From Candidatus Undinarchaeota archaeon (GTDB taxonomy: Archaea > SpSt-1190 > JASMDC01), in assembly GCA_964519305.1 (NCBI GenBank), contig CAZFHY010000006.1:32001-96000 (forward strand): 64,000 nt of DNA. Reading direction: 5' to 3'. Under the pieces are notes generated by a model. It did not search any database. It was not told the origin of the DNA and was given only the letters and a program-made list of their open reading frames with translations. The position numbers and the translations under genes are program-made. Below, piece after piece: positions 1 to 41,462 of the stretch (positions are counted from its first letter, which is position 1; every line of letters begins with the position of its first letter).

Positions 1-511
1 CACCAAGGCCACCCGGCTTATCGCTGACGTGGAACGCCGCGCTACAGAGCTGCGGTCCATCCCTCTGCATACCGGGATGATCGCCCATCCCTCGCTAGCG
101 GCGACCCTCATCGATGCCGGTATCAGGTCCAACGTCATCCCTGACCGCGCCACGGTGACCGTCAACCGCCGTGTCGCCCCGGTCGAGGACATGGATAAAG
201 TGATTGAAGGGCTGGCGGCACTTGGACCGGCCGAGTTCCCCATGGTGTGTCCTGGCTTCGTCCTGCCCGAGAACGATGCCTTTCTCGAAGAGATGTTGGA
301 CGCTTGCAGGGATACGCTGGGGTACGCTGAAGCGTACTGCTCCCGCGGTTGGAGCGATGCTACGGAGTTCGCGGTGGCCGGCATCCCTGCAGTATCTCTG
401 GGACCGGGCACGCTCAGTGCCTGCCATGAGCCCAACGAGGCCTGCGTGCTCGCTGATCTGGACCGGTGCAAAGCAGTGCTGCAACGGTTGCTCGACAGGT
501 CCGCGCGATAG
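1..511 (+). CDS. M20 family metallo-hydrolase (ArgE/DapE-like), 5' end outside window
   Basis: Frame is open to the window edge. Motifs 'GIRSNVIPDRATVTVNRR', 'WSDA' and 'GIPAVSLGPG..ACHEPNE' match the M20 dimerisation and C-terminal regions. Confidence 0.85.
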   Translation, partial: TKATRLIADVERRATELRSIPLHTGMIAHPSLAATLIDAGIRSNVIPDRATVTVNRRVAPVEDMDKVIEGLAALGPAEFPMVCPGFVLPENDAFLEEMLDACRDTLGYAEAYCSRGWSDATEFAVAGIPAVSLGPGTLSACHEPNEACVLADLDRCKAVLQRLLDRSAR

Positions 512-522
512 TCGCAGACCCA

Positions 523-530
523 TTTAAATA
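523..530 (+). promoter_or_regulatory. TATA box for the giant NlpC/P60 gene
   Basis: TTTAAATA in a short AT-rich intergenic gap. Confidence 0.55.
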
Positions 531-595
531 TACGACGAACCATAGGGTTTTCATTGGACAGGGGGTGCTCCGTCGGTCGACGGGGCGATGGGATA

Positions 596-3500
596 ATGGC
601 AGGACGTCTGGTTAGATCGGCAGCAGTATTGATCTGCTCATGGCTAGTACTGGTAGCCATAGCAGCGGACGGTCCTGCAAGTGGCGATACCGTATGCTGC
701 GACGGGTCCGGCGGCGCGAGCATGACCTCGCGACAGGAGTGCACGTCCGGCGGTGGGACCGTCTCGTCCGATACCGTCCAGGCCCCTGCGAAGCCAGAGG
801 ACGATCTCATCTCCGGCAGCGGGACTGGCCCTGCTGCTCTGAACGTCGAGGACCTCAAGTGCGACTCGGACAAGATGGACAACATCGATGCCCGTAACAT
901 GTGCGAGCATCTCAAGAAGATGGGCTCGTCCTACGACAGCATCGACGGCTTCATGTACGGCAAGGACGGGAAAGGGGGTATCCAGGGACACCTGGAGGAG
1001 CTGCACGCCGCGCTAGTAAAGCAGTGCGATAACTGCACTGAGACCCATAAGGACTTTCAGGCGACCCTGTACGACGACTGTGCCAAGGCCGGCGGCGGTC
1101 GTACCGGCAACCTGGCCTTCGATATCAACGCCATCGCCGCGGCCACCACCGACCAGTTCGGACCGGCCATCTGCGACGATGCAGGGAAGTTCGTCTGCCT
1201 CGCCGATGATGCGCACAAGTGCCAGGCACGAGAGGATGGAAAGGGCGGCGCGCTCGAGGGCGCACGTCAGTGCGGCGTGTGCGTGGTCGCGTCCTGCTGT
1301 GCAGGGAAGAAGGTCCTGCCCGGCGGTTTCGAGGACCCGGACGCGGCGGCAGGTGCCTGCAGCGAGGACAAGATCAATCCGAAGGAGGGTCCGTGCCCTA
1401 ATTCCCGGACGTGGGAGTGCACCATCAAGGACGGTCCCCTCAAGAAGAAGCAGAACGACGACCTGGGTATACATGGTGCCCGTGGCCTGTGCGAAAAACC
1501 GGGTGACGCCGCCTCGTGCTCGAAGACGGGGCAGGGAAAGGCGCCCGCCGGCTGCACCAGCTCGTCGTCCGGTGCGTGCTCACAGACGGGCAATCCTAAG
1601 CGATGCAAGAGCAAGATCTGGGGCGACAGCCCGTCCACCGATTCAGGGAAGAGCGACAACTCGGCGATGAAGTGGTGCACGGACGATGGTGGCGACGGGA
1701 AGCGCAGGCCGGCCGTGTGCAAGCACAAGGACGCGTGCAGCGGGTGCAACTGGAAGGAGGGCAGCTCCAGTGAGCAGCGCAGCGAGGACTACGACAAGAA
1801 CGTTCTCGAGTGCTACGGGTACAAGGAGGCCAATCCCAAGTGCGAGCAGGAGGGCATCAGCGAGGACGAGGTGAAGAAGCACACCTACTGCTTCGCCAAC
1901 ACGGACCAGTACCACCGGTACACCTGCGACGAGGACGGGAAGTGCAAGGACAAGGACTCAGTGGGCGCCGTCGTGGAGGTGACGCCCTCGGAGAACGCCG
2001 TGGTGCTCCCCGCGGCACTTGCCGAGTGCCAGGTGCGTGTGGCGAACCTCAAGGACGTGTGCACCGTCTCCGGCTCAAAGACGTTCGGCAAGGGCGGGAC
2101 CGATATAACCCCCTGCGCCATGGCCCCGCTCATCAAGGAGATGATGGAGTTCACCGAGAACTTCCATTACCGTTACCTGGGCTCGGGCGGTGTGAAGGAC
2201 CAGATCCGGACCATGTGGGACAAACTGGAATGCCCCGGTGAGCTGGGCGGTCCCGGGACCGATTCGGCCGCTGCGATGAAGGGCGACGGGACGGGCAACG
2301 ACCAGATCGCCACCCAGGTGGCAGAGGATGAGAAGAAGAAGGCGGAGGAGCGGGCCGCGAAAGGTTCCGCCGACTCCAACGCCATCGTGAGCGAAGCGAA
2401 CTCCTGGAAGGGCACGCCCTACGTGTTCGGAGGGAACACCCGAAGCGGCATCGATTGCTCCGGTTTCACCCAGCAGGTCATGCGCAAGAACGGTGTGAAC
2501 ATCCCCCGGACGGCGGCCAGCCAGTGGGCGGCCTGTCAGCGGAGCGGCGGGACGTACGTGAACGCCAACGAGCTCCAGCCCGGCGACGTCCTCTACTTCC
2601 AGAACACCTACAAGAAGGGTGTCAGCCACACGGGCTTCTATGTGGGCAACGACCAGTACATCCACGCGCCCAAGACCGGTGACGTGGTGCGGACCGTGCG
2701 GTTCTCCACCTCGCGACACTACAAGAGCCATTGGAAGGGAGCGTGCAGGTTCACTGGACTGAAGGGCGGCAGCCCACCGGGCGGGACAAAGGGCCCGGGG
2801 GCCACGCCCGAGCAGCTCAAGGCGAACACCGTCACCAACGAGATGCGCACCGTGGGCTCGCTGCGGAACGAGCAGGCCGAGTTCGGTATCGGGATGAAGG
2901 AGTTCCAGGACCGGATCAAGAAGCTCATCGCCCTTACCAAGGCCGAGAAGGGGCTGCACTGGGACATCACGACCAAGCACGACGACTTCGGTAAGGCCTA
3001 CGATCCCGCGACCTTCGCCACCGAGGAGGGCCACCTCCGGCCCACGATGAACTCGGGCGAGCACAAGGACGCACCCATGTACGAGGGGTATGCCTGGTCG
3101 ATCGCCAAGGAGGATGATACCCTGTGCCAGCTGGAGGCCTCCAAGTGCACGGACGCCGATGGCGAGGCCCTGGGTGACACCGAGAAGGCGAGGACCAAGC
3201 TCGTCGAGCGCACCAAGGCCGCTGTGGAGGAGAAATGCAAGGGCTGCCATCTCCTGCCCCAGGTCATAGGTAAGTGCAAGAACCCGTCGAAATCATGCAG
3301 GTCCGAGAAGGACAAGTGCGAGGTGGACGGGCTCTCCTCTTCCGTGGACTTCGACCGCCATCGCAACACGGACGCCTGGGGCGGTTCCGCGCTGAAGGCC
3401 GTGGAGAACATCAAGGGGCTGCCCGAAGAGGTGTTCACCCGGATCGACGGATGCTACGATTACGCCATCGACAAGACCAATTCAGCGCAGGAGTGCAAGG

Positions 3501-6500
3501 GACAGGGCGAGGGGTCCGCTTGCTCCGACGGTATCTGCTGCTCGGGAGAGTGCACCGATGCCACGGCCTGCAATGCGTACGGCCCTCAGGGCCCTGGTGG
3601 TCCCGGCGGCCCCGATGGCCCCGGACAGGACCAGCAGCAGCCACCGGGCGATCATCCCCCCGGCTGCTCGTGCCAGGCCTGCAGCGGCGGTCAGCAGCCC
3701 AGCGCCACTCCACCCGCCGACGAGGAGGAGGAGGGGCCTGGCGGAGAAGAAGAGGAAGAGCCCGGTGATGAGGAAGAAGGGGATGAGCCCGGCGAGGAAG
3801 AGGAATCCGGTGATGAGGAGGAAGAAGAAGAGGAAGAGGGTCCGGACGATCCCGAGGCCCGTCTCTCGTGCCACGGTTCGAAGCGCACCGATCCCTGCAC
3901 GCTGGACGACAAGGACGGATTGTGCTGCACCGGGGACGACAAGCTCTATTGTCTCGCTGACGAGGACGAGTGCCCGGACGACCCGACGTTCGCTCAGGAG
4001 TGCGAAGGCCAGGACGACGGTGCCCCCTGCTTCGAGGAGAACGGGGAGCCGCAGGGCATATGCTGCATACCTCCGGACAGCGATGTGTCCGTGTGCCGGC
4101 TCGGCGCTTCCTACTGTCGGACACGCATCGACGAGGAGGACCTGGATTCGACCAATCCCACCGAGTGCACCGATGCCTGTCAGCAGTGCTTCGACACTTC
4201 CAACTCGCACTGTCAGGCCCGCGCCGGGGTGTGCGTTTGCGAGATGGGACGCGAGTGGCGGACAACTGGCAAGCAGTGCCCGCAGAGCGTCCCCCCGCCC
4301 ATGAAGGCCCGATATCAGGCGTGCTGTGAGGCGCTGTTCGCCGACGTGCTCGTGATCGAACCGCCCGAGGCCATGGACGGACCTTTCATCGAGGGTGACG
4401 CCACTTATGCGGCAGGGACCGTCATGACCTTGCGTCTCAGGAACCCTGACGAGTCGTCGGTGCACGTCTGCGGTGAATGGTGGCGCGCGTTCGCGTCCGT
4501 CGAGGGCTGGACCGAAGTGAAACAGGTGGAGAAGGACCTTCCTGTCGGGTGCATGGCCGTGCCGTCGAGCGCGGCGGTCACCTGGGACCTGGAGGGCGTC
4601 CTCGACGAGGAGGACGAGCCCGGGCCGATGGGGATCGGGAGCTACAAGGTCGAGATGTGCTACTGCACGTCCGTGGTCGGTGACGATTGTCTGACCGGCG
4701 CGAAGCGGTGCGTCGAGCACAGGTTCCGGGTCGTGGACCCCGGGACGACGTTCGGCGAGGGTGACCTGTCCATGTGCATGACGCCCTCGGGGCTAACTAC
4801 CGGTGTCAGCTACGACCGGTGCCGTACCGTCAGCTCGGACACGGGATTCTGCTGCTCGCTAGGGTTCGAGGAACGGGCCCTTCCCCTGGACTGCAGCGGT
4901 GTCGAGGACGGTTACGAGGACCCGGTGCTCGACGAGTGCAACGTCCGGAACCCGGGAGAGGCGCGTCTGGCCGAGCGTTGCCGCGACCTTGCCATGGACG
5001 AGGACGTGGCCTGCGAGGAACGGTGCCTGACCGATCATCCGGGACTGTCCTCACAGGAGGTGTGCCTCAGCGATGAGTGCGAGGCAGATCCACTCCTCAC
5101 CGACCGCCTGGTCGGGTGCGGAGCACACGAGGAGTGCCTGCGGGTAGAGAAGGCGCTCCATCCCGATCTAAAGGTGACCGTGGGTATGGTGAGGGGTGGT
5201 GAGTTCGCCACGACGTTCTATGCGGGCGAGCCCGCTCAGGTCGAGGTGGAGGTGTACAACGCCGGCCAGTTCGGCTTCTCGGGCGCCGTGGAGACCGCGA
5301 TACTACATCTGGTCGCGTGCGACTGCCCGGCCTGTCCCGCGGGTTACACTTGCGATTGCGAGTGCCAGGAGGAGCGCACCGCTACCGTATCCCGCGAGCT
5401 TTCGCTGCTCCGCCCGGGAGAGACGTTCAGGTACCGTACCGACACCATGTCGCTGGCAGAGAGCATGGCCAACGGGACCGTCCAGCCGGTGGCGACGGTG
5501 GCCCGGACCGGTTCGCCAGTGGCCGAGGCACGTGGTGAGCTCGTACACGTGCTTGAGATGGGCCAGCTGGAGGTCACCGAGGCCTGGTTCGAGATGGGCG
5601 GTGAGCGTGCCACCAGCGCCTATCCGGGCGCAGAGATAACGGGTGTGGCCGAGCTTTCCTCGCGATGGTTCCCGTTGAACGTGAGCCTTTATCTGGAGAT
5701 AGGTGGTGTCGAGATCGATGGCACCCGTGCTACCGTGGAGGTCACCGGACCCGTGAGCAGCCTGTCCATGACCACTCTTCCCTGGGAGGTGACCGCCGAA
5801 AAGATCGAGGCGGTGACCCGCTTGGGCGTTGAAGTGGTGTCGCCTGAAGGCGACGTGCTAATGAAGCGGACGCTGCTAGAACAGGGAACGGGCGCCGCGG
5901 ACTGCGCTGGTTCGGTGATGACCACTGCTTGCCACGATGGCAGGGGACGCGTTCTCCGTTCCTACCCCGCAGGTTATCTTGAGGTGCGGCCTCTCAGGCT
6001 TCGCGTGACGGACGCCTACTTCATCGACGCTGACGGCAACGCTGTCAACACCCTCTACGAGGACACCGAGATGCGGGCAATAGTGGTCGTCGACAACGGC
6101 GCACCCATCGCGTTCACAGGCGTTCTGGAGGCCATAGTCGCCGGGGATGACGGGGCCGATGTGGCCGAGGGCCATGCCCTGGTCGATACCGAGCTCCCGG
6201 CCCGTGGCGGCACGAAACGTCTCGAGACACCCTCGTTCCAGGCCACAAAGGGCTCGACCTACACGATCAGGGTCCGTGCGGCCGGGACGGACGGTACGGT
6301 CTGGAACGACCAGCTCGTAAGCAAGTACCTCTTCCCGCACGGGACGCTGGTCGTGATCGACGAAGAGGAGATGACCGACGAGCGAAATGACGTCAGCACG
6401 CACCTGATATTCACAGCTTGCGAGGTGCGGGTGTCGTGTGGGGCGTGCCTGCCGGTGTGCGAGCTACACGTGGACCCTACGACCTGTTCCCTATCGACCC

Positions 6501-6532
6501 AGCACTGCGGATGCGAGTGCGAGCTCAAATAG
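596..6532 (+). CDS. Giant secreted Cys-rich protein with NlpC/P60 (C40) domain, acidic linker and C-terminal Ig/CARDB-like beta domains
   Basis: Signal peptide from ATG 596 (MAGRLVRSAAVLICSWLVLVAIAA). NlpC/P60 at about 2381-2752: GTPYVFGG..GIDCSGF..LQPGDVLYF..SHTGFYVG..YIHA. E/P/G-rich linker at about 3720-3850. Confidence 0.9.
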   Translation: MAGRLVRSAAVLICSWLVLVAIAADGPASGDTVCCDGSGGASMTSRQECTSGGGTVSSDTVQAPAKPEDDLISGSGTGPAALNVEDLKCDSDKMDNIDARNMCEHLKKMGSSYDSIDGFMYGKDGKGGIQGHLEELHAALVKQCDNCTETHKDFQATLYDDCAKAGGGRTGNLAFDINAIAAATTDQFGPAICDDAGKFVCLADDAHKCQAREDGKGGALEGARQCGVCVVASCCAGKKVLPGGFEDPDAAAGACSEDKINPKEGPCPNSRTWECTIKDGPLKKKQNDDLGIHGARGLCEKPGDAASCSKTGQGKAPAGCTSSSSGACSQTGNPKRCKSKIWGDSPSTDSGKSDNSAMKWCTDDGGDGKRRPAVCKHKDACSGCNWKEGSSSEQRSEDYDKNVLECYGYKEANPKCEQEGISEDEVKKHTYCFANTDQYHRYTCDEDGKCKDKDSVGAVVEVTPSENAVVLPAALAECQVRVANLKDVCTVSGSKTFGKGGTDITPCAMAPLIKEMMEFTENFHYRYLGSGGVKDQIRTMWDKLECPGELGGPGTDSAAAMKGDGTGNDQIATQVAEDEKKKAEERAAKGSADSNAIVSEANSWKGTPYVFGGNTRSGIDCSGFTQQVMRKNGVNIPRTAASQWAACQRSGGTYVNANELQPGDVLYFQNTYKKGVSHTGFYVGNDQYIHAPKTGDVVRTVRFSTSRHYKSHWKGACRFTGLKGGSPPGGTKGPGATPEQLKANTVTNEMRTVGSLRNEQAEFGIGMKEFQDRIKKLIALTKAEKGLHWDITTKHDDFGKAYDPATFATEEGHLRPTMNSGEHKDAPMYEGYAWSIAKEDDTLCQLEASKCTDADGEALGDTEKARTKLVERTKAAVEEKCKGCHLLPQVIGKCKNPSKSCRSEKDKCEVDGLSSSVDFDRHRNTDAWGGSALKAVENIKGLPEEVFTRIDGCYDYAIDKTNSAQECKGQGEGSACSDGICCSGECTDATACNAYGPQGPGGPGGPDGPGQDQQQPPGDHPPGCSCQACSGGQQPSATPPADEEEEGPGGEEEEEPGDEEEGDEPGEEEESGDEEEEEEEEGPDDPEARLSCHGSKRTDPCTLDDKDGLCCTGDDKLYCLADEDECPDDPTFAQECEGQDDGAPCFEENGEPQGICCIPPDSDVSVCRLGASYCRTRIDEEDLDSTNPTECTDACQQCFDTSNSHCQARAGVCVCEMGREWRTTGKQCPQSVPPPMKARYQACCEALFADVLVIEPPEAMDGPFIEGDATYAAGTVMTLRLRNPDESSVHVCGEWWRAFASVEGWTEVKQVEKDLPVGCMAVPSSAAVTWDLEGVLDEEDEPGPMGIGSYKVEMCYCTSVVGDDCLTGAKRCVEHRFRVVDPGTTFGEGDLSMCMTPSGLTTGVSYDRCRTVSSDTGFCCSLGFEERALPLDCSGVEDGYEDPVLDECNVRNPGEARLAERCRDLAMDEDVACEERCLTDHPGLSSQEVCLSDECEADPLLTDRLVGCGAHEECLRVEKALHPDLKVTVGMVRGGEFATTFYAGEPAQVEVEVYNAGQFGFSGAVETAILHLVACDCPACPAGYTCDCECQEERTATVSRELSLLRPGETFRYRTDTMSLAESMANGTVQPVATVARTGSPVAEARGELVHVLEMGQLEVTEAWFEMGGERATSAYPGAEITGVAELSSRWFPLNVSLYLEIGGVEIDGTRATVEVTGPVSSLSMTTLPWEVTAEKIEAVTRLGVEVVSPEGDVLMKRTLLEQGTGAADCAGSVMTTACHDGRGRVLRSYPAGYLEVRPLRLRVTDAYFIDADGNAVNTLYEDTEMRAIVVVDNGAPIAFTGVLEAIVAGDDGADVAEGHALVDTELPARGGTKRLETPSFQATKGSTYTIRVRAAGTDGTVWNDQLVSKYLFPHGTLVVIDEEEMTDERNDVSTHLIFTACEVRVSCGACLPVCELHVDPTTCSLSTQHCGCECELK

Positions 6533-6563
6533 CGGTGTGGCTTACGGGGATGATGACAGGAAA

Positions 6564-6635
6564 GCAGGGGGACCGGGAGATACGGTGAATCAGCCGTTAC
6601 GGAAGCGCTCAGAGGTCGCCCCCGATCACCCTGCT
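6564..6635 (-). ncRNA. Candidate small structured RNA (~71 nt)
   Basis: About 15-bp terminal stem with G-U pairs only on the minus strand. TTTATAA box at 6659-6653, ~25 nt upstream. Pyrimidine run follows. Confidence 0.4.
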
Positions 6636-6721
6636 ATTGAATATGCTGCTAATTATAAAGTCCGACCGACTTAATAACTATTGCCATAATCAACCCCACA
6701 CGTCGCGGTCAGGGGCTTGGA

Positions 6722-8179
6722 TCACTTCTCTTCCTGGTTGCGCTCCAACTCTTCGCGCCAGAGCCGCGCCGTGGCCTTGATGTGGCCCACGCGGTCGCCC
6801 AGTGCTGTCCAGGTGTCGGGTACCTGGCCGTCGTAGCGCTCACCTGTCCGCAGGACGAGGTCCTCGATGCCCTCAGCGACATGCTCCAGCTCGCCTGCTT
6901 CCGCAGGATCGGAGATGTTCTCGATGGCGTCGTCCCAGTCGCGACCGGTCCATACCTCGAGGGCGTGGGTCAGCGCGGCCACGTAGTCCCCACGCTTGGT
7001 CTCCAGCTCCTCCCGGACCACCTTCTCGTGGACCTGGGCGTAGCCGTGCATCCGCTCGAGCGCTCCCGTGTTCTCGACACGGAGCACCTCGAACACGCGC
7101 GAGTAATCGGCGTTGCTTTCCACGAGCTCGTCGAACACAGAAGCATCCTGGGAGTACACCCGGGACATGGTGTCGGTGACCTCGTCGATATCCTCGAGCA
7201 TCTTGAAAGCGGCGTTCCCGGCCACCAGAAGCTCCTTGCCCTCGATATCCCTGTTGGTGAGGGTGCCCAGCTCGTGTACGTTGAGCCGGGTCATGAGGTC
7301 GGTAACGCCCTCGTAGACGTCCTCGACAGCTCCCTTGTAGGGGTCGAGCGCGCCACCGAAGCTGGAACGGAACACCTTCTTGCCGATGGTCTTCCATACC
7401 TTCAGGCCGTCGCCACCGTCCGCCTCGTTCTTTGTGCGTCGGAGCGACTCTACCAGGTAGGTGTTGAAGTCGGCGGGGACGGTGAAGTCCAGCGCCTTCT
7501 GGGGGAGAGGGATGACCACATCGGCGTTCTCCGTCTTGCCGAAGCGCTCGGTCTTCACGTCCGAGAGCTGGAGATAACCTTCGCTGTAGTCGGTGAGGAT
7601 GCCACGGTACTCGCGGCCACTGGGGTCCTTGACGGCGACGCCGTACCCGACCAGGTGCTCGAGATTGTCGTCCCAGCTGCCGCCGATGTTGTCGAACACC
7701 GCCTGAGCGCCTTCGGTGGTCACCGAGCCGCCCATGTACATGCTGGCGCCGGCCGTGGTCACACGGCTGACGGCGTTCACGGAGTTGGCAAGAGGTGCCT
7801 TGGTACGGTCCCAGAACTTGTGGAGCCAGCCCCTGCCTGTCCCGTTCTGCACGATCTTTGAGAGCTCCGAGTCGCGCTTGGCGAGCTTCTTGTCGCCAAG
7901 GTCCTGCTCGAACCGGGTGACGGAGTACACCTCGTTGGAGGAGTAGATGGCCTGGTTGGCGGCCACGTAGGAGCCGTTGACGTCGAGGAGGATGTTGTCG
8001 TGGTCGTCGATCTGGAGCACCTTGCCCCTGATCTGGTAGTCCTCCGAGGCGGTGTTGAGCGATACGTAATCGCCGTCGAAGTCACCGAGGCACCTGTCAG
8101 TGCCGTTGTATAGGAAACCACGTGCCAGCAGACCGGCGGTCACCGCGCCGAGCACGAAATGGCCTGGATCGAGAGACAT
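6722..8179 (-). CDS. Hypothetical protein with N-terminal hydrophobic anchor, Sm/LSm-like segments and a helical C-terminus
   Basis: 485-aa ORF with typical codon bias and upstream TATA (TATAAATA near 8228-8235, minus strand). 'GREYRGILTDYSEGYLQLSDV' resembles an Sm1 motif. Confidence 0.8.
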   Translation of the reverse strand: MSLDPGHFVLGAVTAGLLARGFLYNGTDRCLGDFDGDYVSLNTASEDYQIRGKVLQIDDHDNILLDVNGSYVAANQAIYSSNEVYSVTRFEQDLGDKKLAKRDSELSKIVQNGTGRGWLHKFWDRTKAPLANSVNAVSRVTTAGASMYMGGSVTTEGAQAVFDNIGGSWDDNLEHLVGYGVAVKDPSGREYRGILTDYSEGYLQLSDVKTERFGKTENADVVIPLPQKALDFTVPADFNTYLVESLRRTKNEADGGDGLKVWKTIGKKVFRSSFGGALDPYKGAVEDVYEGVTDLMTRLNVHELGTLTNRDIEGKELLVAGNAAFKMLEDIDEVTDTMSRVYSQDASVFDELVESNADYSRVFEVLRVENTGALERMHGYAQVHEKVVREELETKRGDYVAALTHALEVWTGRDWDDAIENISDPAEAGELEHVAEGIEDLVLRTGERYDGQVPDTWTALGDRVGHIKATARLWREELERNQEEK

Positions 8180-8291
8180 GATGTATCACCATTACTCTGT
8201 GAGTGACAGACCGCGCTCCGGGGCCGCTATTTATAGTTTCCCATGATGATTGGTTATAAGGGGAAATAGAGGTGGGACCGCTAGTTCCTGT

Positions 8292-11200
8292 CTAGGGATG
8301 GAAACTGTGCAGCCCTTTGTCCTCTCCGCCCTCCTTCTTCTTCGGCTGCTCCCCGGTCACACCCTCGGGCTGCTGCGGTGGTTGGGGGTGCTGCGGCACC
8401 TGCGGCCGTCCCATGGCCCCTGGATGGAGACCGTGCGCTGCCTGCTGGGCCCCTTGGCCGCTCGTCGGCTGCTGCCCGGGCGTACCCCACCCGTGCTGCT
8501 GCTGATGCTGGCTTTGCATCTGCGGTGAATGGACCGTCTGTGCACCGTAGTACGCCCGCTGGCCGTAGTACTGGCCCCCGCCGTAGTACTGCTGTTGCGG
8601 GCCATAGTAACGCTGCTGCCCCTGTGCCTGCTGGGACCCGTCCAGGGCCGCACCACCGACCGCCTTGTCCACAGCTGCTCCGGGGAACAGCGCCCGCTTG
8701 AAGGCGAGGAGCAGGGCGCCGATGACCACGATCACCTCGATGAAGTCCTTGATGTTGGCGAGCTCACCGATCCGCTCGATAACGGCCACTGCTCCGATCT
8801 CGACGGTGACCTTGTGCTCGGTGGTGGCGTTGGGCATACCAAGGGGCCGTATCCTGATGGTGAGCTCATGCTCACCGGGCACGATCCCCTGGACGTCGAC
8901 CGAGAGCGGCAGGGTGGCGTCCTCCTCGATGACCACCTTGTGCCTGGCATTCCATGATAGCCCCATGGCGTTGCTGTCCGCCTCCAGAGCGATATCGAAC
9001 GCTTCTCGTAGCGACCCTGTGTTCTTCAGCGTGAAGGCAAGCAGACGCGTCTCCTTTTCTATCATCTCGATCGAGCCCGGACCCTCGATATCGGCCGAGC
9101 ATACACAGTCCGGCGAGGTGCGGCAGTCCTCGCCGACACCCGGCTCGCAAGCACCATCGACGCACTGATCGGGACCGCAGTCCAAGGCACACGTCACGCA
9201 CTCGGTGGCGTTCTCGCACGTACCGTCACCGCACCCGCCACGGCAGGAATGGCTCTCCGCGTCGCACGTCATTGTGCTCGGGCAGCCACAGTCCTCGCAG
9301 CACGAGCTCGAGCCCTCGTCGGGGCTGTCGCAGTGAGCGTCGCCGCAGGTGATCCGGTTGCACCCTATCTCGTTGGAACCGGCACGGGACGTGTCGCAGA
9401 TGAAACCGAGCATGCACAGGCAGTCCTTGGGAGCGAGGATGCAGTCCTCTCCCAGGGCCGTGTCGCACACGCCGTTCCCGCGACAGTCCAGGATCGAGCA
9501 GTCGGCCGGGCACTGACCGCACTCGTTCTGGCACTTACCATCACCGCACTCGGCGGTGGCGCACCGGCCGGAGGCGTCGCATGTGAAACCCTTCTCGCAC
9601 ATACCCTCGCATAAGCATGAGTCGCCACCGGCACCACGGACCAAGCACCACCCCGCACCGTCGCACACGCCCAGCTCGCACACGCTACCGCACGGCCGTT
9701 CCTCGGGGACGCACTGGCCGCCGATGCACAGGTCCTCAGTGCAGGGGTTCCCGTCATCACATCCACAGTCCTCGGGACAGGTGTTACAGTCCTCGGTGGC
9801 CTCGCACACGCTGTTGGGGCACTCGGCGGTGCAGGCGTTGTGCGGGTCGGAGGGACATGGGTCCTCGTCGTCCGGGATACCGTCCAGATCGCGGTCCGAC
9901 AGGCACGCGTCGTCGGCACAGATGAACGTGACCTCGAAAGCGGCCCTGCAGGCCGTGTCGGGCTCGGTCATGTTGCCGCATCGTGCGCACCCTGCCGATG
10001 GTTCGCACACGAGCCCTTCCTCAGTGCAAGTCCTCTCCAGACCGGGGGTGCACACGCCTTCCACGCAAGAGAACGTTATGTGGGCGTTCTGGTGGCAGAG
10101 ACCGGCGCAGTCGTCATCCACGGCGCATGACTTGCAGGCGTTCTTGGGATCGCGCGGGCACGGGTCCGTGTCGTCGCCGAACCCGTCGCCGTCGAAGTCA
10201 GGAGCACATCCTCGGGGCCTGTCCGAGGACGGATCGCACGTCTCGCCCTCATGACACCCGCAATCCTCCTGGCAACGACCACAGTTCTCGTTGGGATCAC
10301 ACACACCGTTCCCGCACAATCGCTGGCACGTGCCGTCGCGACAGCCGAATGCAGAGCCGTAGGTGAGGGATGCTGTGCAGTTGATGTCTGCGATGCATCC
10401 AACGCATCCTTCACGGGAACAGACGGTACCCGATTCCGTGCAGTTGGTCGATGGTCGCTCCTTGCACACGTAGTTGTCGCATCCCTGCCCGCTGAACACG
10501 TTATGCTCGCAGGAGTAGCGGCAGTTATCGTTACGGAAGCATGAGGCTACCTTGCAGAAGAGCCCTTCGATGTCACAGGCGTAGTTGGGTCCGTACTGCG
10601 ACTGGCACTGCTCGTTGGATATACAGGAGAGGCAACCGGATGGGAGCTGACATACCTGGTTGATGCCGGTGGCGGAGCAGTCGTGGATGTTCTCGACCTG
10701 GATCTCGCACCGCATGTCGCCACAGGAATAGTCGAGGAAGGAGTAGCGCTGGCAGGTGTCCTCGCAATGGTCGTCCTCGAGGCAGGACACGCACCCACGC
10801 TCGCTGTTGCATTGGAGGTCCAGATCGCTGCAGGACGACTCGGTCACGTTGCAGACGCCAGCGGTGCAGGTGCTGTTGAGGTATGTGCGTCCGTCCGCCC
10901 CTCCGCATGTATCGGCGCACCCTGGCGCTGTGGCGCTGCACTCGCCCACCTCGGAGCACGCACCGGGCGCGTTCCCGGAGCAGCAGGGCTGGGCCAGGGA
11001 CGAACAAGCCAGCTGAGCTGTCTCCTGGGCGCACCGCACCTCGCCCGCGCATCCCGCGCTGCCGCACACCTTCCCGGGCTCGAAGCCCGGTGGTGGGGCC
11101 ACGCACTGGCCGCTGCAGCAGAAACCGCTCCCAGATGCGGTGACGCAGGGGGCGTGGTCGGGTTCGCACGAGGCCTTGCACAGCCAGTCCTTGTTGGGAT

Positions 11201-14200
11201 CGTCCACGCACATGGGCGCCGCCTCCCCGCAGTTGTCGACCTGTCCGCCGGGACAGGTGACGGCCTGGCTGCACGTTCCTGAACCGGGATCGCACACCAG
11301 CTCCCCGCCGCACTCACAGTCCTTCGTGCACGGATCGCCAGCGCCCTTTGTCTGGATCGGGACGCAAGCGCCTGTCACACAGCACTGGGAGGCACAGTGC
11401 GTCTCGGACGAGCAGCCGGTCATGCACGTACCCACGGTACCGTCGCACACATAATCACCGCACTCCTGCGCCGTCGTCCCATCGAACGCGCCGAGGAGTG
11501 TACAGACGGAGGTCATGGTCCGCTCCTCGTTGCACACGTCACGGCCGACAGTATCGCACTGCCACGCGTTGCTCTGACATGCGACGAGGCCCTCGGGGCA
11601 CGGGCCGGTCCCGCACGCCCCCCGGGGCGTCCACAGGAGGTCGGGCATGACCTCGCAGCCTGTCCCGCAGCAGTAACCGGTCGTGACGCCGTGCTCACAG
11701 GCGGCCGCGCCGAAAGCTGCGCACGATGCGCAGCGGTCGAGGCCGCCGGTACCGTCCGTATCGAGGCAGGGGAAGATGTCCTGACAATGGAGGCTCGATG
11801 TGCAGGCCTCCCGGCACTGGCCGGCGGACGGATCACATCGGTAGGGCGAGCAGTCACCTCTGCTCTCGAAGGTCCCTGTGGTCGAGCACTGGCCCTTTCG
11901 GGCGAGATCATCGGAGCACACAGGATCGCCCAGGGAGTCGCAGGCCCAGTCGCCGTCCCTACAGGTCACCGCTCCGGTGCAGTTGCCCTCACCGCACGCG
12001 TTACTGGGGGTCCATGGGGCCAGAGGCATGCCCTGACAGGTGTCACCACAGCAGAAGCCCGTGGCGCCGTCCAGGTCGCATACCGACGCCTCGTGCTCGG
12101 CGCAACCCCCGCAGGTGTCGGGTGCCCGGTCGCCGTCCACGTCTATGCAGGCAGCGGGCGCGAGGCAGTGCTCGTTGGACACGCACCCGGTGAAGCAGCT
12201 ACCGGAAGCATCGTCGCACTGGTAGGGAGCGCACAGCTTTGCCTGTGCGGCGTTGAACACTCCCGTCAGAGTGCATGTGGACGATTTGTCCTGTGAGCAT
12301 GCTGCTTGTCCCGCGGAACTGCACTGCCAGGTACCCGTCCCGCACGTCACCGAACCCTCGCATGGCACCTCCCCGCAGGCCGCGCCCGGTGTCCAGTCGA
12401 AGATGAGCATGCCTGCGCACTCTCCGCCACAGCAGTACCCTGCCTGGATACCTTCCTGACACTGCTTGGTAGCGTGCTTGGAGCATGTGGAGCAGGTGTC
12501 CAGCCCGCCAGCACCGTCCGTGTCGATGCACGACAGACCCCCCTGACAGTCGGTGTCCGATGCGCACGCGGCCCCTTCTCCCGCAAGGTCCGTGCAGGTG
12601 CCGGTGTTGGCATCGCAGAACCCGGCCGCGCACTCGCAGTCGAGGTCGCATTCCGCATCGTTGGGGAGCTTGGTGACGTAGCACAGGTCGTTGCAGCAGG
12701 CACCCTCGCCGTCGTCCGTGTAGCACAACCGGCCCGTCTCCATCCCCGCACAGGAGCTGCAAGCGTCAACTAGATTGTCGCCGTCGCTGTCCCTGCACAC
12801 GTCGGTACATAGAGATCCGACGCAGCACACACCGCTCTGGCCCGCGTTGTCGGTGGCCGGTTTGCCGTTATCATCACCGGGATGGCATGTACCGCACTGG
12901 CCGCCGGCACCCGTCTTGTCGATGCACAGACCGCTGGCGCACTGACCGCCGTCGGTACAGGTCTGGCCGTCGCGGAGGAGACAGGCGTCCACTATGCACT
13001 CATAGCCGGCCTGACAGGGGCAGTCAAGGAGACAGGCACCGCAGTCCTCGCCGGTCTCGCATTTCCCGTTGCCGCAGCAGACGAGGGCCGCCTCTCCGGT
13101 CTCGTCGCAATCCGGGTCCGTTCCGAAACACTCGGCCGACAGGCAGACGGCGTCGCAGACCGCGGGGCACGCGGTGCACTGGGGAGGAGCCGTGGCGCAG
13201 AACTCGCCCCCGCTACAAGTGACGCACGTACCGCCAACACAGGAACAGGACCCGGCGTCACCGTCACACTCGCTGGAGTCGTCCACGGTGCACGCTCCAC
13301 CGCTGCAGTCGCTGCATCCGGGGCAGGCGGTGTAGTCACAGGTGGCCGAGCAGGTCCCCTCCGTCGCGGAGCAGATAGCACCGCCGTCCACATCGAGACC
13401 GTCGCACTGAGCGGACACCGTGGCGCCGTTCTGACCGTTGCACGACAAGTGACATACTGTGTCACCTTCAGCCGTCCCGTCCCCCTCACAACAGTCCTGG
13501 GGGCAGCTGGTGTGGTCCTCACCTACACCCTCGTCACAGGACCCGTCGCCGCACATGGCGCCCTGTAGGTAGGTGATGGAGACATCGTACAGCTCTGGGG
13601 AGCTGGTATGCGGTGTTGACAGATCGAACTGGTACTGGAAGTACCGGTTGTCGGCAACGTCCGGGTTCTGTGGTGATGTGACGTCGATGGTCGTGAACGC
13701 CTCGCCCGTGCACGACGGATCGTCGCAGCTCCGCACCTTTGGAGTGAACAGTAGGAAGCCCCGCTCGTAGTGGTCCTGGATCTCGGTGGCGGTGAGCGCT
13801 CTGTTGTAGATGGCCACCTCGTCGAAGGTGTTGGTGTCGTGCCTGCCCACAAGTAGATCGTACGAGTTGGTGACGATGGTATCGGAGAGCGCCTTCGATT
13901 TCTGCACCTGGCCATTGACGTAGATGTTCTGCTGGGATTCTGCGGGACCGGTCCGGTCGTAGGTGAGCGCTACGTGGTACCATCCGGATGACAGTGTGGC
14001 CGATATCTTCTGCCGGTTGACCCTGCCGACTACCGAATCGGAGTCGATGGTGAGCGCGTAGGCTCCGGGCTTGACGATACCCCGGTCCGGTCGCAACCAA
14101 ACGGTATTCAGGAACCCGTCGTCATTGGGCCCGCGGTAGGCGATGGCGAACACGGTGTCGGTGACCGGGACGATGGCCGGCCTTCGTGCGTAAGTGCCCT

Positions 14201-15737
14201 CGAACTGATTGGTATTGATGACGGAGAGCCCGCTCGTACCGTCCTCGCCGATGGACACCATCTTCACTACCCCTCTTGTGTTGTGATTGGAGTAGACGAG
14301 AGCGAACCGGTCGTGGGCGATGTGGACTATGTCGGGTTCGTACCCTTTCTGGGGACTGGTGGCGAACTGCAGGAGGCCGAGCTCCTTGTCCTCGATCTGG
14401 CCGTTGTCGGCGATGGACACGGTCCTGATCTCCCCGATATCGCTGACGCCCCGATGGACTATGGCGAACACATCCCCAGCCACGTGCACGATCTCCGGCT
14501 CGTAGACCTTCTGGCAGGCACCCTCTCGGTCGGTGTTGATCGACAGAGTGTCTATGACCGCACCGATGGTCCCTTTATTATCGATGGACACGGTCTTGAG
14601 GAATCCGCAGTCGTTGTCCCCCCGGTAGACGATGGCGAACACGGTACCGTCCACGTGGATGATGCGCGGCTCATATCCCTTTGTTCCGTCGAACTCCAGG
14701 GAGGAGTCGGTCTGGTCCACTCCTACCCCGTTCGCCGGGATGGTCACGGTCTCTACCATCCCTGCATCGTTGTCCGTCCGGTAGACCACGGCGTACATAG
14801 TACCTGCGACATGGACGATGTCCGGGTCCAATCCCGTACCGTCGAACTTAAGGTCACTGAGGAACTTAGAGCCGAAAGCTCCCGCGGCGCTGATGGAAAC
14901 GGTCTTGATCTTCCCGTCCTGGTTGTCGAACTTGCTGAATGCGACGGCATAGATGTCGCCCGCGACATGGATGAGGTCCGGTTGGTCGCCGTGCCCGTCG
15001 AACTCCTTGGTAGCGAGTGTCCTGGTGCCGATCTGCCCGTCATCTGCGATGGTCACTGTACTAATGTACCCCTTGTCGGAGTTGGCGCCGCGGTAGGCGA
15101 CGGCGTATGTTGTCCCGCTCACGTGGATGATGCTCGCGCTCGAGGCGGCACCAGTGTCGAACTCGAGGGAATCCACGTTATTATCAGGATGCTCCCACTC
15201 CGCCCCGAGCTTCACAAATGCTTCGATCGTGATGGCATCGGCGATGTCCAGGCTCGCAGCGTCCGCGATGGTGACAACATCGTCCTCCCCGCCGAACTGG
15301 AGGCCCGTCCCGAACCGTCCCTCGGCCCCGTACGTGGGATCCCCTGACGCGGTACCGTGGTTCCCCTGGCCCGAGGCGTCCTGGGGCGCTCCGCCCGTTT
15401 CGTCAAGGTGTAAGAGGAGCACGTTGTCCGTCATGTCCGCTCCGCCCCTCACGGTCTCGATCCCCCTGTTGTCCGGGAAGGGCTTACCGTAGGGCGCTCC
15501 CCGGGTCCACGTGATGGACTGCCACTGGGAGGTCGTCAGGGCGTCGAACACCTTGGATGTGTAGGTGCCGGCGGTCTGACCGGATGCGAGCTTCACATGG
15601 TCGGTGCTCCACTGGGTGCTGGAATAGGTCCCCTCGTCGAACGTCGTTTTGTCATCCGTCTCCCAGATGTCGGCCGCGACGAGGGCAATGAGCAATAAGA
15701 GGACGACCACAGGCCGGACAAACCTCCCACTACTCAT
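8292..15737 (-). CDS. Giant type I membrane adhesin: LamG domain with inserted 7-blade beta-propeller, Cys-rich stalk with DxDxDG/TSP3 motifs, Ig-like domain, TM helix, Q/Y/G-rich tail
   Basis: Signal peptide MSSGRFVRPVVVLLLLIALVAA with TATA ~26 nt upstream. LamG motifs 'GWYHVALTYD' and 'FDEVAIYNRALTATEI'. 'DRDLDGIPDDEDPCP' TSP3-like motif. TM 'FIEVIVVIGALLLAF'. Confidence 0.9.
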   Translation of the reverse strand: MSSGRFVRPVVVLLLLIALVAADIWETDDKTTFDEGTYSSTQWSTDHVKLASGQTAGTYTSKVFDALTTSQWQSITWTRGAPYGKPFPDNRGIETVRGGADMTDNVLLLHLDETGGAPQDASGQGNHGTASGDPTYGAEGRFGTGLQFGGEDDVVTIADAASLDIADAITIEAFVKLGAEWEHPDNNVDSLEFDTGAASSASIIHVSGTTYAVAYRGANSDKGYISTVTIADDGQIGTRTLATKEFDGHGDQPDLIHVAGDIYAVAFSKFDNQDGKIKTVSISAAGAFGSKFLSDLKFDGTGLDPDIVHVAGTMYAVVYRTDNDAGMVETVTIPANGVGVDQTDSSLEFDGTKGYEPRIIHVDGTVFAIVYRGDNDCGFLKTVSIDNKGTIGAVIDTLSINTDREGACQKVYEPEIVHVAGDVFAIVHRGVSDIGEIRTVSIADNGQIEDKELGLLQFATSPQKGYEPDIVHIAHDRFALVYSNHNTRGVVKMVSIGEDGTSGLSVINTNQFEGTYARRPAIVPVTDTVFAIAYRGPNDDGFLNTVWLRPDRGIVKPGAYALTIDSDSVVGRVNRQKISATLSSGWYHVALTYDRTGPAESQQNIYVNGQVQKSKALSDTIVTNSYDLLVGRHDTNTFDEVAIYNRALTATEIQDHYERGFLLFTPKVRSCDDPSCTGEAFTTIDVTSPQNPDVADNRYFQYQFDLSTPHTSSPELYDVSITYLQGAMCGDGSCDEGVGEDHTSCPQDCCEGDGTAEGDTVCHLSCNGQNGATVSAQCDGLDVDGGAICSATEGTCSATCDYTACPGCSDCSGGACTVDDSSECDGDAGSCSCVGGTCVTCSGGEFCATAPPQCTACPAVCDAVCLSAECFGTDPDCDETGEAALVCCGNGKCETGEDCGACLLDCPCQAGYECIVDACLLRDGQTCTDGGQCASGLCIDKTGAGGQCGTCHPGDDNGKPATDNAGQSGVCCVGSLCTDVCRDSDGDNLVDACSSCAGMETGRLCYTDDGEGACCNDLCYVTKLPNDAECDLDCECAAGFCDANTGTCTDLAGEGAACASDTDCQGGLSCIDTDGAGGLDTCSTCSKHATKQCQEGIQAGYCCGGECAGMLIFDWTPGAACGEVPCEGSVTCGTGTWQCSSAGQAACSQDKSSTCTLTGVFNAAQAKLCAPYQCDDASGSCFTGCVSNEHCLAPAACIDVDGDRAPDTCGGCAEHEASVCDLDGATGFCCGDTCQGMPLAPWTPSNACGEGNCTGAVTCRDGDWACDSLGDPVCSDDLARKGQCSTTGTFESRGDCSPYRCDPSAGQCREACTSSLHCQDIFPCLDTDGTGGLDRCASCAAFGAAACEHGVTTGYCCGTGCEVMPDLLWTPRGACGTGPCPEGLVACQSNAWQCDTVGRDVCNEERTMTSVCTLLGAFDGTTAQECGDYVCDGTVGTCMTGCSSETHCASQCCVTGACVPIQTKGAGDPCTKDCECGGELVCDPGSGTCSQAVTCPGGQVDNCGEAAPMCVDDPNKDWLCKASCEPDHAPCVTASGSGFCCSGQCVAPPPGFEPGKVCGSAGCAGEVRCAQETAQLACSSLAQPCCSGNAPGACSEVGECSATAPGCADTCGGADGRTYLNSTCTAGVCNVTESSCSDLDLQCNSERGCVSCLEDDHCEDTCQRYSFLDYSCGDMRCEIQVENIHDCSATGINQVCQLPSGCLSCISNEQCQSQYGPNYACDIEGLFCKVASCFRNDNCRYSCEHNVFSGQGCDNYVCKERPSTNCTESGTVCSREGCVGCIADINCTASLTYGSAFGCRDGTCQRLCGNGVCDPNENCGRCQEDCGCHEGETCDPSSDRPRGCAPDFDGDGFGDDTDPCPRDPKNACKSCAVDDDCAGLCHQNAHITFSCVEGVCTPGLERTCTEEGLVCEPSAGCARCGNMTEPDTACRAAFEVTFICADDACLSDRDLDGIPDDEDPCPSDPHNACTAECPNSVCEATEDCNTCPEDCGCDDGNPCTEDLCIGGQCVPEERPCGSVCELGVCDGAGWCLVRGAGGDSCLCEGMCEKGFTCDASGRCATAECGDGKCQNECGQCPADCSILDCRGNGVCDTALGEDCILAPKDCLCMLGFICDTSRAGSNEIGCNRITCGDAHCDSPDEGSSSCCEDCGCPSTMTCDAESHSCRGGCGDGTCENATECVTCALDCGPDQCVDGACEPGVGEDCRTSPDCVCSADIEGPGSIEMIEKETRLLAFTLKNTGSLREAFDIALEADSNAMGLSWNARHKVVIEEDATLPLSVDVQGIVPGEHELTIRIRPLGMPNATTEHKVTVEIGAVAVIERIGELANIKDFIEVIVVIGALLLAFKRALFPGAAVDKAVGGAALDGSQQAQGQQRYYGPQQQYYGGGQYYGQRAYYGAQTVHSPQMQSQHQQQHGWGTPGQQPTSGQGAQQAAHGLHPGAMGRPQVPQHPQPPQQPEGVTGEQPKKKEGGEDKGLHSFHP

Positions 15738-15816
15738 GGGAATATTTCTAGGTTTGACGATTATTAAAGCTTGGGCCGGCAGTGCCATGCAGATAGTATT
15801 CCTGAGTCCGGACCGT

Positions 15817-21294: not shown

Positions 21295-21403
21295 TCGCTC
21301 CCCGGTCAGCTGGATACTGTTATAAACCATCCCACCTGAATGATTCAATACGGAGGGGTCCGGTATGTCCCGACCCCCTCCTATGTGCGGAGGCGGTTAC
21401 CCC

Positions 21404-41183: not shown

Positions 41184-41462
41184 ATGTTAACCACCGGTCC
41201 ACCTACCGTGTCGGAAGAGGGCTCTGGAGGATCGACAGGTCTCGAGCTGGCCGTGCTGGCAGGGATGGTATTATTAGCGTTCCCAATCTACCGCACGGTG
41301 GTCCGTTTCCTTGAAGCGGATATGGGCATCACGCTCTGGACAGCCATGCTCGGGTACGCAGCAGTGGTCGTTGCATGCTACGCGTACTACCGCTGCGTCG
41401 GCGTGCTCATGCACTACCTGCACCTAGGATCTTACTCGGACGATGAGAGTAGTGGGCCCTAG
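41184..41462 (+). CDS. Small membrane protein (2 TM)
   Basis: 92-aa ORF with two hydrophobic segments. Confidence 0.55.
   Translation: MLTTGPPTVSEEGSGGSTGLELAVLAGMVLLAFPIYRTVVRFLEADMGITLWTAMLGYAAVVVACYAYYRCVGVLMHYLHLGSYSDDESSGP

Follow-up and report, generated by a model that had tools for sequence, protein, structure and literature searches.

An NlpC/P60 domain of bacterial type in a giant, cysteine-rich, predicted secreted protein of an archaeon

Results

Layout of the gene and its predicted product

The window analyzed here is a stretch of 64,000 nucleotides from the genome of a Candidatus Undinarchaeota archaeon, comprising positions 32001-96000 of contig C6 (C6:32001-96000) of the assembly that we refer to as G000. 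Near its beginning lies a gene for a cysteine-rich, predicted secreted protein of 1978 amino acids, which carries an NlpC/P60 (hereafter P60) domain of the MEROPS C40 type. In an initial annotation of this DNA, the protein was interpreted as a bacteria-derived lytic domain, displayed on a long tether by an archaeon that lacks murein and used for attacking or attaching to bacteria. The coding sequence extends from 596 to 6532 on the + strand, stop codon included, as had been assigned: a single uninterrupted frame runs from a TTG at 554, which is an alternative start, to 6532, and its earliest ATG, at 596, yields the 1978-residue product. All features of the gene described below are on this strand.

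The N-terminal 25 residues (596..670) resemble a signal peptide. Residues 8-24 constitute the sole long hydrophobic stretch of the protein and are followed, as judged by eye, by an Ala-x-Ala site; on these grounds, we read the segment as a Sec signal, through which the protein would be exported. Next comes an N-terminal Cys-rich scaffold, residues 26-595 (671..2380), parts of which recur in other members of a protein family that is described below (BLASTP). Pfam gave no match in this segment, and the ESM Atlas gave no usable match for residues 30-595. The P60 domain occupies residues 596-726 (2381..2773), and the Gly/Pro linkers and charged helix that had been described before it are directly visible in the translation. 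It is followed by a conserved, partly helical scaffold region at residues 727-1000 (2774..3595), which aligns with a paralogue on contig C3 that has no P60 domain, and by an acidic, Gly/Pro-rich linker of low complexity at approximately residues 1001-1100 (3596..3895), with 36 Asp/Glu, 19 Gly and 16 Pro per 100 residues. Small Cys-rich modules fill approximately residues 1101-1418 (3896..4849), where 27 Cys fall within residues 1101-1400 and the segment 1183-1267 has short BLASTP matches to many paralogues. The remainder, residues 1419-1978 (4850..6529), is a C-terminal module common to the family, made up of helical hairpins and three beta-sandwich domains and ending in a conserved Cys-rich tail. 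Altogether, Cys accounts for 113 of the 1978 residues (5.7%), in agreement with the huge Cys-rich scaffold that was originally reported. Disulfides between many of these cysteines are probable and would lend stiffness to a long extracellular protein.

The P60 domain has an intact Cys-His-His triad and is more constrained than the rest of the protein

The sole Pfam family above its cut-off in the protein was NLPC_P60, which matched residues 606-714 with 89.1 bits (cut-off 23; E 2.2e-25) and scored 95.1 bits in a genome-wide profile search; CHAP overlapped weakly with the same region, under threshold. The match (nt 2411-2737) is consistent with the range of approximately 2381-2752 proposed in the initial annotation. 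The three triad residues named there also align with those of solved P60 enzymes: the catalytic Cys621 (codon 2456..2458), within DCSG at residues 620-623, with the DCSG motif of 7cfl, 8v3w and 6b8c; His678 (2627..2629), within SHTG at 677-680, with their SHVG; and His690 (2663..2665), within YIHA at 688-691, with their IHA. In P60 enzymes, the catalytic Cys lies at the beginning of the core helix, and the third residue of the triad is a polar one, His, Asn, Gln or Glu. Of 222 non-archaeal homologues, 212 have Cys in the column of Cys621. Among the eight copies of the domain in this genome and in a second genome of the genus, G001, His678 (H83 of the domain) is kept in all and His690 in seven, the exception being an Asn in the G000 copy of a paralogue on contig C10 that also lacks the catalytic Cys.

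Structural and curated databases place the domain among bacterial murein endopeptidases, as the initial annotation had supposed. In the Protein Data Bank (PDB) sequences, 35 distinct chains matched at E <= 0.001, including LytE, MepS/Spr, CwlO and RipA. The top matches were the Clostridioides difficile wall hydrolase 7cfl, the diffocin hub-hydrolase CD1368 (8v3w), LytE, Tn916-type hydrolases and MepS/Spr, and the best chains had E values of 1e-16 to 4e-20. All nine NCBIfam matches, which are domain-level matches under the whole-protein cut-offs, were of P60 type. Eight are peptidoglycan endopeptidase-type families, such as EntFM/CwpFM, p60/Iap, MepS, RipA-C and a phage cell-wall peptidase, and the ninth is RipD, described in NCBIfam as inactive and peptidoglycan-binding. 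The more specific claim that the domain cleaves gamma-D-Glu-mDAP bonds was overstated. The matches include DL-endopeptidases as well as MepS, a DD-endopeptidase/LD-carboxypeptidase according to the PDB, and thus the cleaved bond cannot be read from the sequence.

In comparison with the G001 orthologue, the ratio of nonsynonymous to synonymous substitution rates (dN/dS) was 0.066 for the P60 domain, 0.149 and 0.184 for its flanks and 0.157 for all 1109 codons compared. Purifying selection is therefore stronger on the P60 domain than on its flanks, and no other part of the protein is as constrained.

The C-terminal module defines a family of at least 19 giant proteins

The C-terminal approximately 540 residues of the protein recur at the extreme C-terminus of 18 other open reading frames (ORFs) of 1067-2846 aa (BLASTP E <= 9e-36), which are spread over 9 contigs and in several cases stand in tandem arrays. 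Three further ORFs on contig C7 match the module weakly. These proteins form a family of at least 19 giants with a common C-terminal region and variable N-terminal and middle regions. A profile of the module found 27 matches in G000, where the gene under study scored 635 bits, and 25 in G001, and none in the other 15 genomes of the phylum that were searched (0.6-1.2 Mb); it is thus found in 2 of 17 genomes, both of one genus. A word-based search of a set of 5.8 billion proteins, which may miss distant homologues, returned four matches, in clusters labelled Undinarchaeales and, in one case, Methanopyri. Eight of the 14 invariant columns in the module alignment (A3) are Cys.

Structure prediction, which the initial annotation had envisaged for the full-length protein, succeeded at the C-terminus and failed at the N-terminus. 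An AF2 model of residues 1419-1978, built from an alignment of the 19 paralogues, had a mean pLDDT (predicted local distance difference test) score of 87 and showed three beta-sandwich domains together with a segment of helical hairpins and a beta tail rich in Cys. The beta-sandwich domains bear out the Ig-like C-terminal domains that had been suspected. Foldseek related the model to arrays of macroglobulin, Ig-like, adhesin-stalk and integrin-type domains with TM-scores of 0.15-0.27, low values that are expected for a multi-domain rod, and the ESM Atlas gave a weak lead to CARDB (0.86). We read the modelled module as a rod-like stalk, which is likely to be an attachment or assembly element; no anchor was found in it. 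For residues 25-1000, which cover the N-terminal scaffold and the P60 domain, a family characterized by a papain-like alpha+beta fold, a five-sequence alignment gave a model with a mean pLDDT of only 30, and a profile of this alignment, in which the P60 columns are insertions, had no match in the PDB sequences.

Large proteins are common in this genome: 122 stop-to-stop frames reach 1000 aa or more. A signal-like segment begins most of them, and many have a very high Cys content, with a maximum of 15.4% in an ORF of 4130 aa; the longest ORF has 8351 aa, and C1:224797-249852 and C11:61164-73556 are examples.

Murein-hydrolase domains recur on the shared scaffold

Pfam was run on the other 18 family members, 17 of which were scanned minus their last 540 residues. 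Four members, including the protein under study, carry a P60 domain, and one of these has Gly at the position of the catalytic Cys. These are the four P60 matches of the genome, in open frames of 2006-2355 aa, and the same four are found in G001. Peptidase_M23 is present in four members, two of which also have P60 in the same protein. One member, encoded on contig C19, contains SLT, at 21.2 bits just under the Pfam cut-off of 21.3 and at 27.2 bits in the genome search, and another contains a glucosaminidase domain at 28.7 bits, under the cut-off of 30.2. Wall-hydrolase domains (P60, M23, SLT and the weak glucosaminidase) are thus found in 6 of the 19 members. The remaining recognized domains are Lectin_C and FG-GAP in one member each and Kazal in two; seven members had nothing recognized by Pfam, and one further member had Bac_A_amyl_C below threshold only. 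No other enzyme family was recognized by Pfam in the 19 proteins. Read against the usual motif definitions, the metal-binding motifs are complete in three of the four M23 copies, and the Glu-Ser and following motifs of SLT are present. The occurrence of M23, SLT and P60 on the same scaffold would fit a murein target well.

Two paralogues have unusual combinations of these domains. The one at G000:C10:38217-44264 (L102) and its G001 orthologue (L009) combine the sub-threshold glucosaminidase with a motif-intact M23 and a P60 domain in which Cys is replaced by Gly in both genomes. In the G000 copy, the third residue of the triad, His, is also replaced. This protein looks like a conserved pseudo-enzyme, possibly serving as a binding module. 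In the C19 paralogue (G000:C19:1214-7414; L114), SLT is inserted within the shared stalk, between two beta-sandwich domains, and an M23 domain without its first His motif is also present. Outside the two genomes, a 1545-aa protein of another assembly (P0020) has a P60 domain 55% identical to that of the 1978-aa protein and the same C-terminal tail, and its N-terminal part shares a motif with the SLT domain of the C19 paralogue. The sequence of another protein, P0036 (434 aa), appears by eye to be an M23 domain with a P60 domain after it.

An archaeal host without a recognized Mur ligase, and a native locus

G000 is a genome of 3.63 Mb in 42 contigs, with a completeness of 99.83% and a contamination of 4.29%. 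It contains an archaeal small-subunit (SSU) rRNA gene (1508 bits). The window also encodes Nre_N/Nre_C, a response-regulator/PAS/DUF835 protein, FTCD and FeoAB, and just upstream lie genes for an M20 peptidase, an AAA protein, an HMG-CoA-synthase-like protein and a thiolase. The rRNA and the archaeal genes within and upstream of the window confirm the archaeal host assumed in the initial annotation. The M20-family peptidase gene enters the window at 2-511 (+), reaches upstream to C6:31424 and ends 85 bases 5' of the start of the P60 gene. At 3.63 Mb, the genus is a striking size outlier relative to the 0.6-1.2 Mb of the other 15 genomes of the phylum. Canonical Undinarchaeota genomes are given an average of 0.66 Mbp in the available text of one study (PMC7414124), and that of an mBio paper states that metagenome-assembled genomes of one lineage, SpSt-1190, reach approximately 4 Mb.

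The base composition of the P60 segment agrees with that of the remainder of the gene and of native genes: its GC content and GC content at third codon positions were 0.636/0.885, compared with 0.649/0.789 for Nre and 0.632/0.846 for FeoB. The gene was present in eight marine or seawater DNA sequencing runs from two studies. In two runs, one from each study (X1 and X4), single contigs of 31,118 bases span window positions 1-9000 with 0 differences, and contigs of two others (X7 and X8) bridge both borders of the P60 domain. The assembly itself may derive from these runs; their contigs thus speak against a chimeric join without amounting to independent proof. The initial annotation had noted that a bacterial or chimeric origin of the locus would undo its interpretation; the run contigs, the composition and the flanking archaeal genes all speak against this.

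Mur_ligase_M had no match in this 99.8% complete genome, while control matches were obtained in 12 of 14 named genomes, which supports the earlier premise of a host that does not synthesize murein. The organism thus shows no sign of murein synthesis, although it keeps several types of murein-cutting enzyme. Genome-wide, Amidase_2 also had no match, and no MurQ-type etherase scored above its cut-off (best 29 bits against 302).

Orthologues exist in public databases. A near relative with 95% identity in the P60 domain is recorded as a Candidatus Undinarchaeales archaeon, and the orthologue cluster (90% identity, 1962 aa) is named C40 family peptidase at NCBI and cell wall-associated NlpC family hydrolase in IMG; automatic annotation of the protein therefore already exists. 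We found no paper that discusses the 1978-aa protein, and none of the papers on Undinarchaeales concerns it, as judged by titles and abstract openings.

Evolution of the P60 domain

The P60 domain retrieved 44,335 representatives at E <= 0.001 from a library of 1.84 billion proteins. The top-scoring matches were multi-repeat proteins, and the best single-domain matches were approximately 50-56% identical. A tree of 231 rows was built from the best domain of each listed representative, together with named loci and the G000 and G001 copies; three loci with an in-domain stop, four identical rows and P0152-P0155 were left out. The named loci were fetched with two peptide patterns and are biased to Bacillaceae. 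In this tree, all nine archaeal giant-protein copies fell inside a clade of 12 rows with three unnamed proteins. One of the latter, P0079, is a phage tape-measure protein according to PHROGs matches outside P60. In a subset tree of 62 rows, P0079 moved outside the clade, and the link to phages is thus weak. In the same subset, seven archaeal copies formed a clade with a support of 90 in the Shimodaira-Hasegawa-like approximate likelihood ratio test (SH-aLRT), and the C12 pair stood in the same polytomy (93). Forcing the nine copies together gave a log-likelihood 9.35 higher (+9.35) than the free search and a p value of 0.695 in the approximately unbiased test (p-AU; 62 rows), and thus monophyly is not rejected. 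The named relatives, with their bias to Bacillaceae (39-49% identity), lie in the other half of the 62-row tree.

The archaeal copies also share two cysteines. Cys647 (codon 2534..2536) is Cys in all nine archaeal copies and in none of 222 others, and Cys717 (2744..2746) in all nine and in 4 of the 222; the two occur together in nine of nine and 0 of 222, respectively. This pair appears to be a shared derived trait and may form a disulfide. The tree, the Cys pair, the dN/dS values and the native composition together point to one old acquisition of the domain from bacteria or their mobile elements, which would have been followed by duplication and shuffling among scaffold genes under continued functional selection. 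The phylogeny was originally expected to reveal a donor clade. It names none, as the nearest non-archaeal neighbours are unnamed and weakly placed. The domain is rare among archaea: it was found in 8 of 401 archaeal genomes sampled. Two of these are the genomes of the present genus, and each of the remaining six has one copy, in a frame of 236-1551 aa.

Discussion

Proposed function of the protein

Much of the initial interpretation has held up, namely the archaeal host, the lack of a recognized Mur ligase, the bacterial type of the domain and the non-chimeric locus, whereas its bond specificity and its novelty have not. We consider it probable, though well short of certain, that the protein is a murein-targeting, bacteria-directed extracellular weapon or attachment tool. 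With no murein synthesis genes found in the host, the substrate would have to be external, namely the peptide stems of bacterial peptidoglycan. The murein substrate, the cooperation among paralogues and the ecological purpose are what we infer from the domains and their relatives. The exported protein would use its long scaffold to present the enzyme away from the cell or in the medium, where the P60 domain, set between flexible Gly/Pro linkers, would cut the stem peptides of a bacterial wall from outside. Other bonds could be cut, in cooperation with it, by the M23, SLT and P60 domains that its paralogues carry on related scaffolds, and binding to the target could fall to the members with lectin, FG-GAP or dead-P60 domains. 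A bacterium attacked in this way might be weakened, opened or lysed, in the course of competition, feeding or docking on a host.

Several observations weigh against this proposal. No recognized cell-wall-binding domain was found in the 1978-aa protein (Pfam, E <= 0.01), and LysM and PG_binding_1 had 0 matches across the whole genome; the catalytic domains therefore carry the entire case for murein targeting. Enzymes of the P60 superfamily can use other gamma-glutamyl or acyl substrates. As many as 13 of the 19 family members were without a hydrolase domain, and thus the family may be chiefly adhesive or structural. No membrane anchor beyond the N-terminal signal was found, including at the C-terminus, which makes tethered display a guess. 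No RNA run was listed among the runs that hold the gene. With the closest non-archaeal neighbours unnamed and weakly supported in the tree, neither a donor nor an action from without can be claimed on phylogenetic grounds. Finally, the N-terminal 1000 residues have no usable model, and further activities may be hidden there.

An unlikely alternative is that the protein is a secreted digestive enzyme, which frees peptides from the wall debris of dead bacteria as a source of carbon and nitrogen for a heterotrophic archaeon. Its enzymology would be identical to that of a weapon. The protein has no recognized wall-binding domain to retain it on living cells, the gene directly upstream encodes an M20 peptidase of cytoplasmic appearance, and the genome is large compared with the reduced genomes of the phylum. 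Use of the glycan part of murein is unsupported, because no MurQ-type etherase above the cut-off and no Amidase_2 were found. A disulfide-rich scaffold of 2000 residues with lectin, FG-GAP and Kazal relatives also resembles contact machinery more than a digestive enzyme, and the retention of a dead-P60 paralogue in both genomes likewise speaks against this reading.

Action on a substrate other than murein seems improbable. The domain could remodel the archaeon's own envelope or matrix, or act on another gamma-glutamyl or isopeptide polymer, for example poly-gamma-glutamate or cross-links between giant proteins. The P60 superfamily does include enzymes for non-murein substrates, no murein-binding module was found in the protein, and the very many Cys-rich extracellular proteins predicted among the 122 ORFs of at least 1000 aa could form a matrix. 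Yet every one of the nearest relatives among solved structures and curated families is a peptidoglycan enzyme, and M23 and SLT occur on the same scaffold. The target of SLT is the MurNAc-GlcNAc glycan, for which no archaeal counterpart is known here, and no Mur ligase was found. Pseudomurein was also considered as a target but seems unlikely, because SLT and M23 accompany P60.

We give still less weight to the idea that P60 serves only as a murein-binding module, which would dock the archaeon on a bacterial partner without lysis. The C10 paralogue, in which Gly in place of the catalytic Cys is conserved in both genomes, the weak NCBIfam match to the inactive RipD, and the lectin and FG-GAP domains on relatives with the same scaffold would suit such a role; the fully intact triad of the protein studied here and the strong constraint on its P60 domain would not. 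It is very improbable that a bacterial or phage gene entered the archaeal bin by contamination or chimeric assembly, as the contamination estimate (CheckM-type) and the tape-measure protein among the nearest non-archaeal P60 domains might suggest, given the archaeal genes on both sides in the same contig, the native composition, the identical contigs from two runs of two studies, the orthologues of all four P60 proteins in the second genome of the genus and the C-terminal module that links the gene to 18 others on 9 contigs.

Relation to known systems

The catalytic domain and its Cys-His-His triad match those of bacterial P60 enzymes (LytE, CwlO, MepS/Spr, p60/Iap, RipA-C and 7cfl) by sequence, but the setting differs. 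The host is an archaeon in which no Mur ligase was found; the domain lies midway in a Cys-rich protein of 1978 aa rather than at the end of one of 150-500 aa; no LysM, SH3 or coiled-coil partner domains were recognized; and an extra Cys pair is present. Phage virion-associated lysins, which are tape-measure or minor tail proteins with a P60 domain, and diffocin CD1368 (8v3w) are similar in that P60 is embedded in a very long structural protein that acts on the wall from outside, as is proposed here; 8v3w was the second-best PDB match, and the 231-row tree places the tape-measure protein P0079 with the archaeal copies. However, the scaffolds are unrelated, no phage genes were found around the locus, where the neighbours are metabolic and regulatory, and Pfam recognized no tail domain in the protein.

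Archaeal peptidoglycan hydrolases (PGHs) are not without precedent. A survey of 3,706 archaeal genomes reported modular PGHs in 175 of them, along with experiments in which two M23 proteins from Halogranum salarium killed a bacterium (Strock et al. 2025, PLoS Biol, PMC12352652). The novelty of the initial idea was therefore overstated, the more so since the orthologue is already named a C40 family peptidase. Like the PGHs described in the available text of that study, the present protein is archaeal, is predicted to be secreted, has a wall hydrolase of bacterial type, is proposed to act in conflict with bacteria and has a patchy archaeal distribution (P60 in 8 of 401 genomes here). The survey demanded a Pfam wall-binding domain beside the catalytic one. 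In the present protein, the catalytic domain (NLPC_P60) is present and no wall-binding domain was found, which places it outside the definition as worded in that text. It also differs from the PGHs described there in its length of approximately 2000 aa, in being one of 19 members of a giant-protein family in which several catalytic types occur, and in the location of its gene on a large contig with housekeeping genes rather than on a plasmid or small contig.

Two further likenesses come from the literature on predators and DPANN archaea. The 'Archaeovorins' of predatory Omnitrophota, as presented in the available text of a preprint (bioRxiv 10.1101/2023.11.21.568195), are very large extracellular multidomain proteins with wall-degrading domains, SLT in some, and are proposed to attach to and degrade prey of another domain of life. 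The likeness is one of description; there, a bacterium would prey on an archaeon, whereas here an archaeon would act on a bacterium, and their proteins exceed 10,000 aa, compared with 1,000-2,900 aa in the present family. Large SLT proteins have also been described in DPANN genomes of oxygen-deficient waters and read as a sign of possible parasitism (PMC10936187). The setting is similar, with a DPANN-affiliated archaeon, low-oxygen seawater and a murein-degrading domain in a large protein, but the domain there is SLT, not P60, and the available text of that report describes no giant-protein family or P60/M23 set.

The concept is thus known, while the architecture and the host are new. According to the available text on the small halophile enzymes (PMC12352652), archaeal antagonism to bacteria has been shown experimentally only recently. 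The present case would extend it to another enzyme class, P60 together with M23 and SLT; to a new architecture, in which the catalytic domains lie within Cys-rich proteins of approximately 2000 aa on one common stalk; and to an uncultured marine host with a genome three to six times the size of those of its phylum relatives. Surveys that demand a known wall-binding domain would miss such proteins, and the frequency of archaeal wall hydrolases may thus be underestimated. Should these enzymes lyse bacteria, archaeal bacterivory or parasitism on bacteria would have direct genomic evidence in this family, which would also be a source of disulfide-stabilized lytic enzymes.

A bolder proposal, which we regard as speculative and rather unlikely, is that the archaeon is a bacterivore, predatory or epibiotic-parasitic, with approximately 20 disulfide-rich 'tentacle' giants, and that its genome grew by the expansion of such surface proteins. 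The lectin, FG-GAP and dead-P60 members would then grip the prey, and the P60, M23, SLT and glucosaminidase members would open its wall. If this were true, the family would be the genomic hallmark of an archaeon that preys on bacteria.

Other genes of the window

Several neighbouring genes of the window also encode large or Cys-rich products. Neighbouring the P60 gene, a giant ORF of 2498 aa with 9.8% Cys (8292-15788, -) has Laminin_G_3 as its sole Pfam match; LamG-type proteins are proposed as Undinarchaeales adhesins in the available text of an earlier study (PMC7414124). Divergent from it is a gene for a 1413-aa regulator with receiver, multiple PAS, DUF835 and winged-helix domains (15877-20118, +). 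Two predicted secreted proteins carry Cys-rich domains of eukaryote style, one with Dickkopf_N and DUF7107 (21365-24244, +) and the other with four Kazal protease-inhibitor domains and DUF333 (36962-38155, +). A giant ORF of 1625 aa with 7.0% Cys and a signal-like start (41459-46336, -) matched no Pfam family. The 1345-aa product encoded at 52119-56156 (-) has an N-terminal CW_binding_2, a domain best known from clostridial surface-layer proteins, and a similar N-terminal sequence starts several other giant ORFs.

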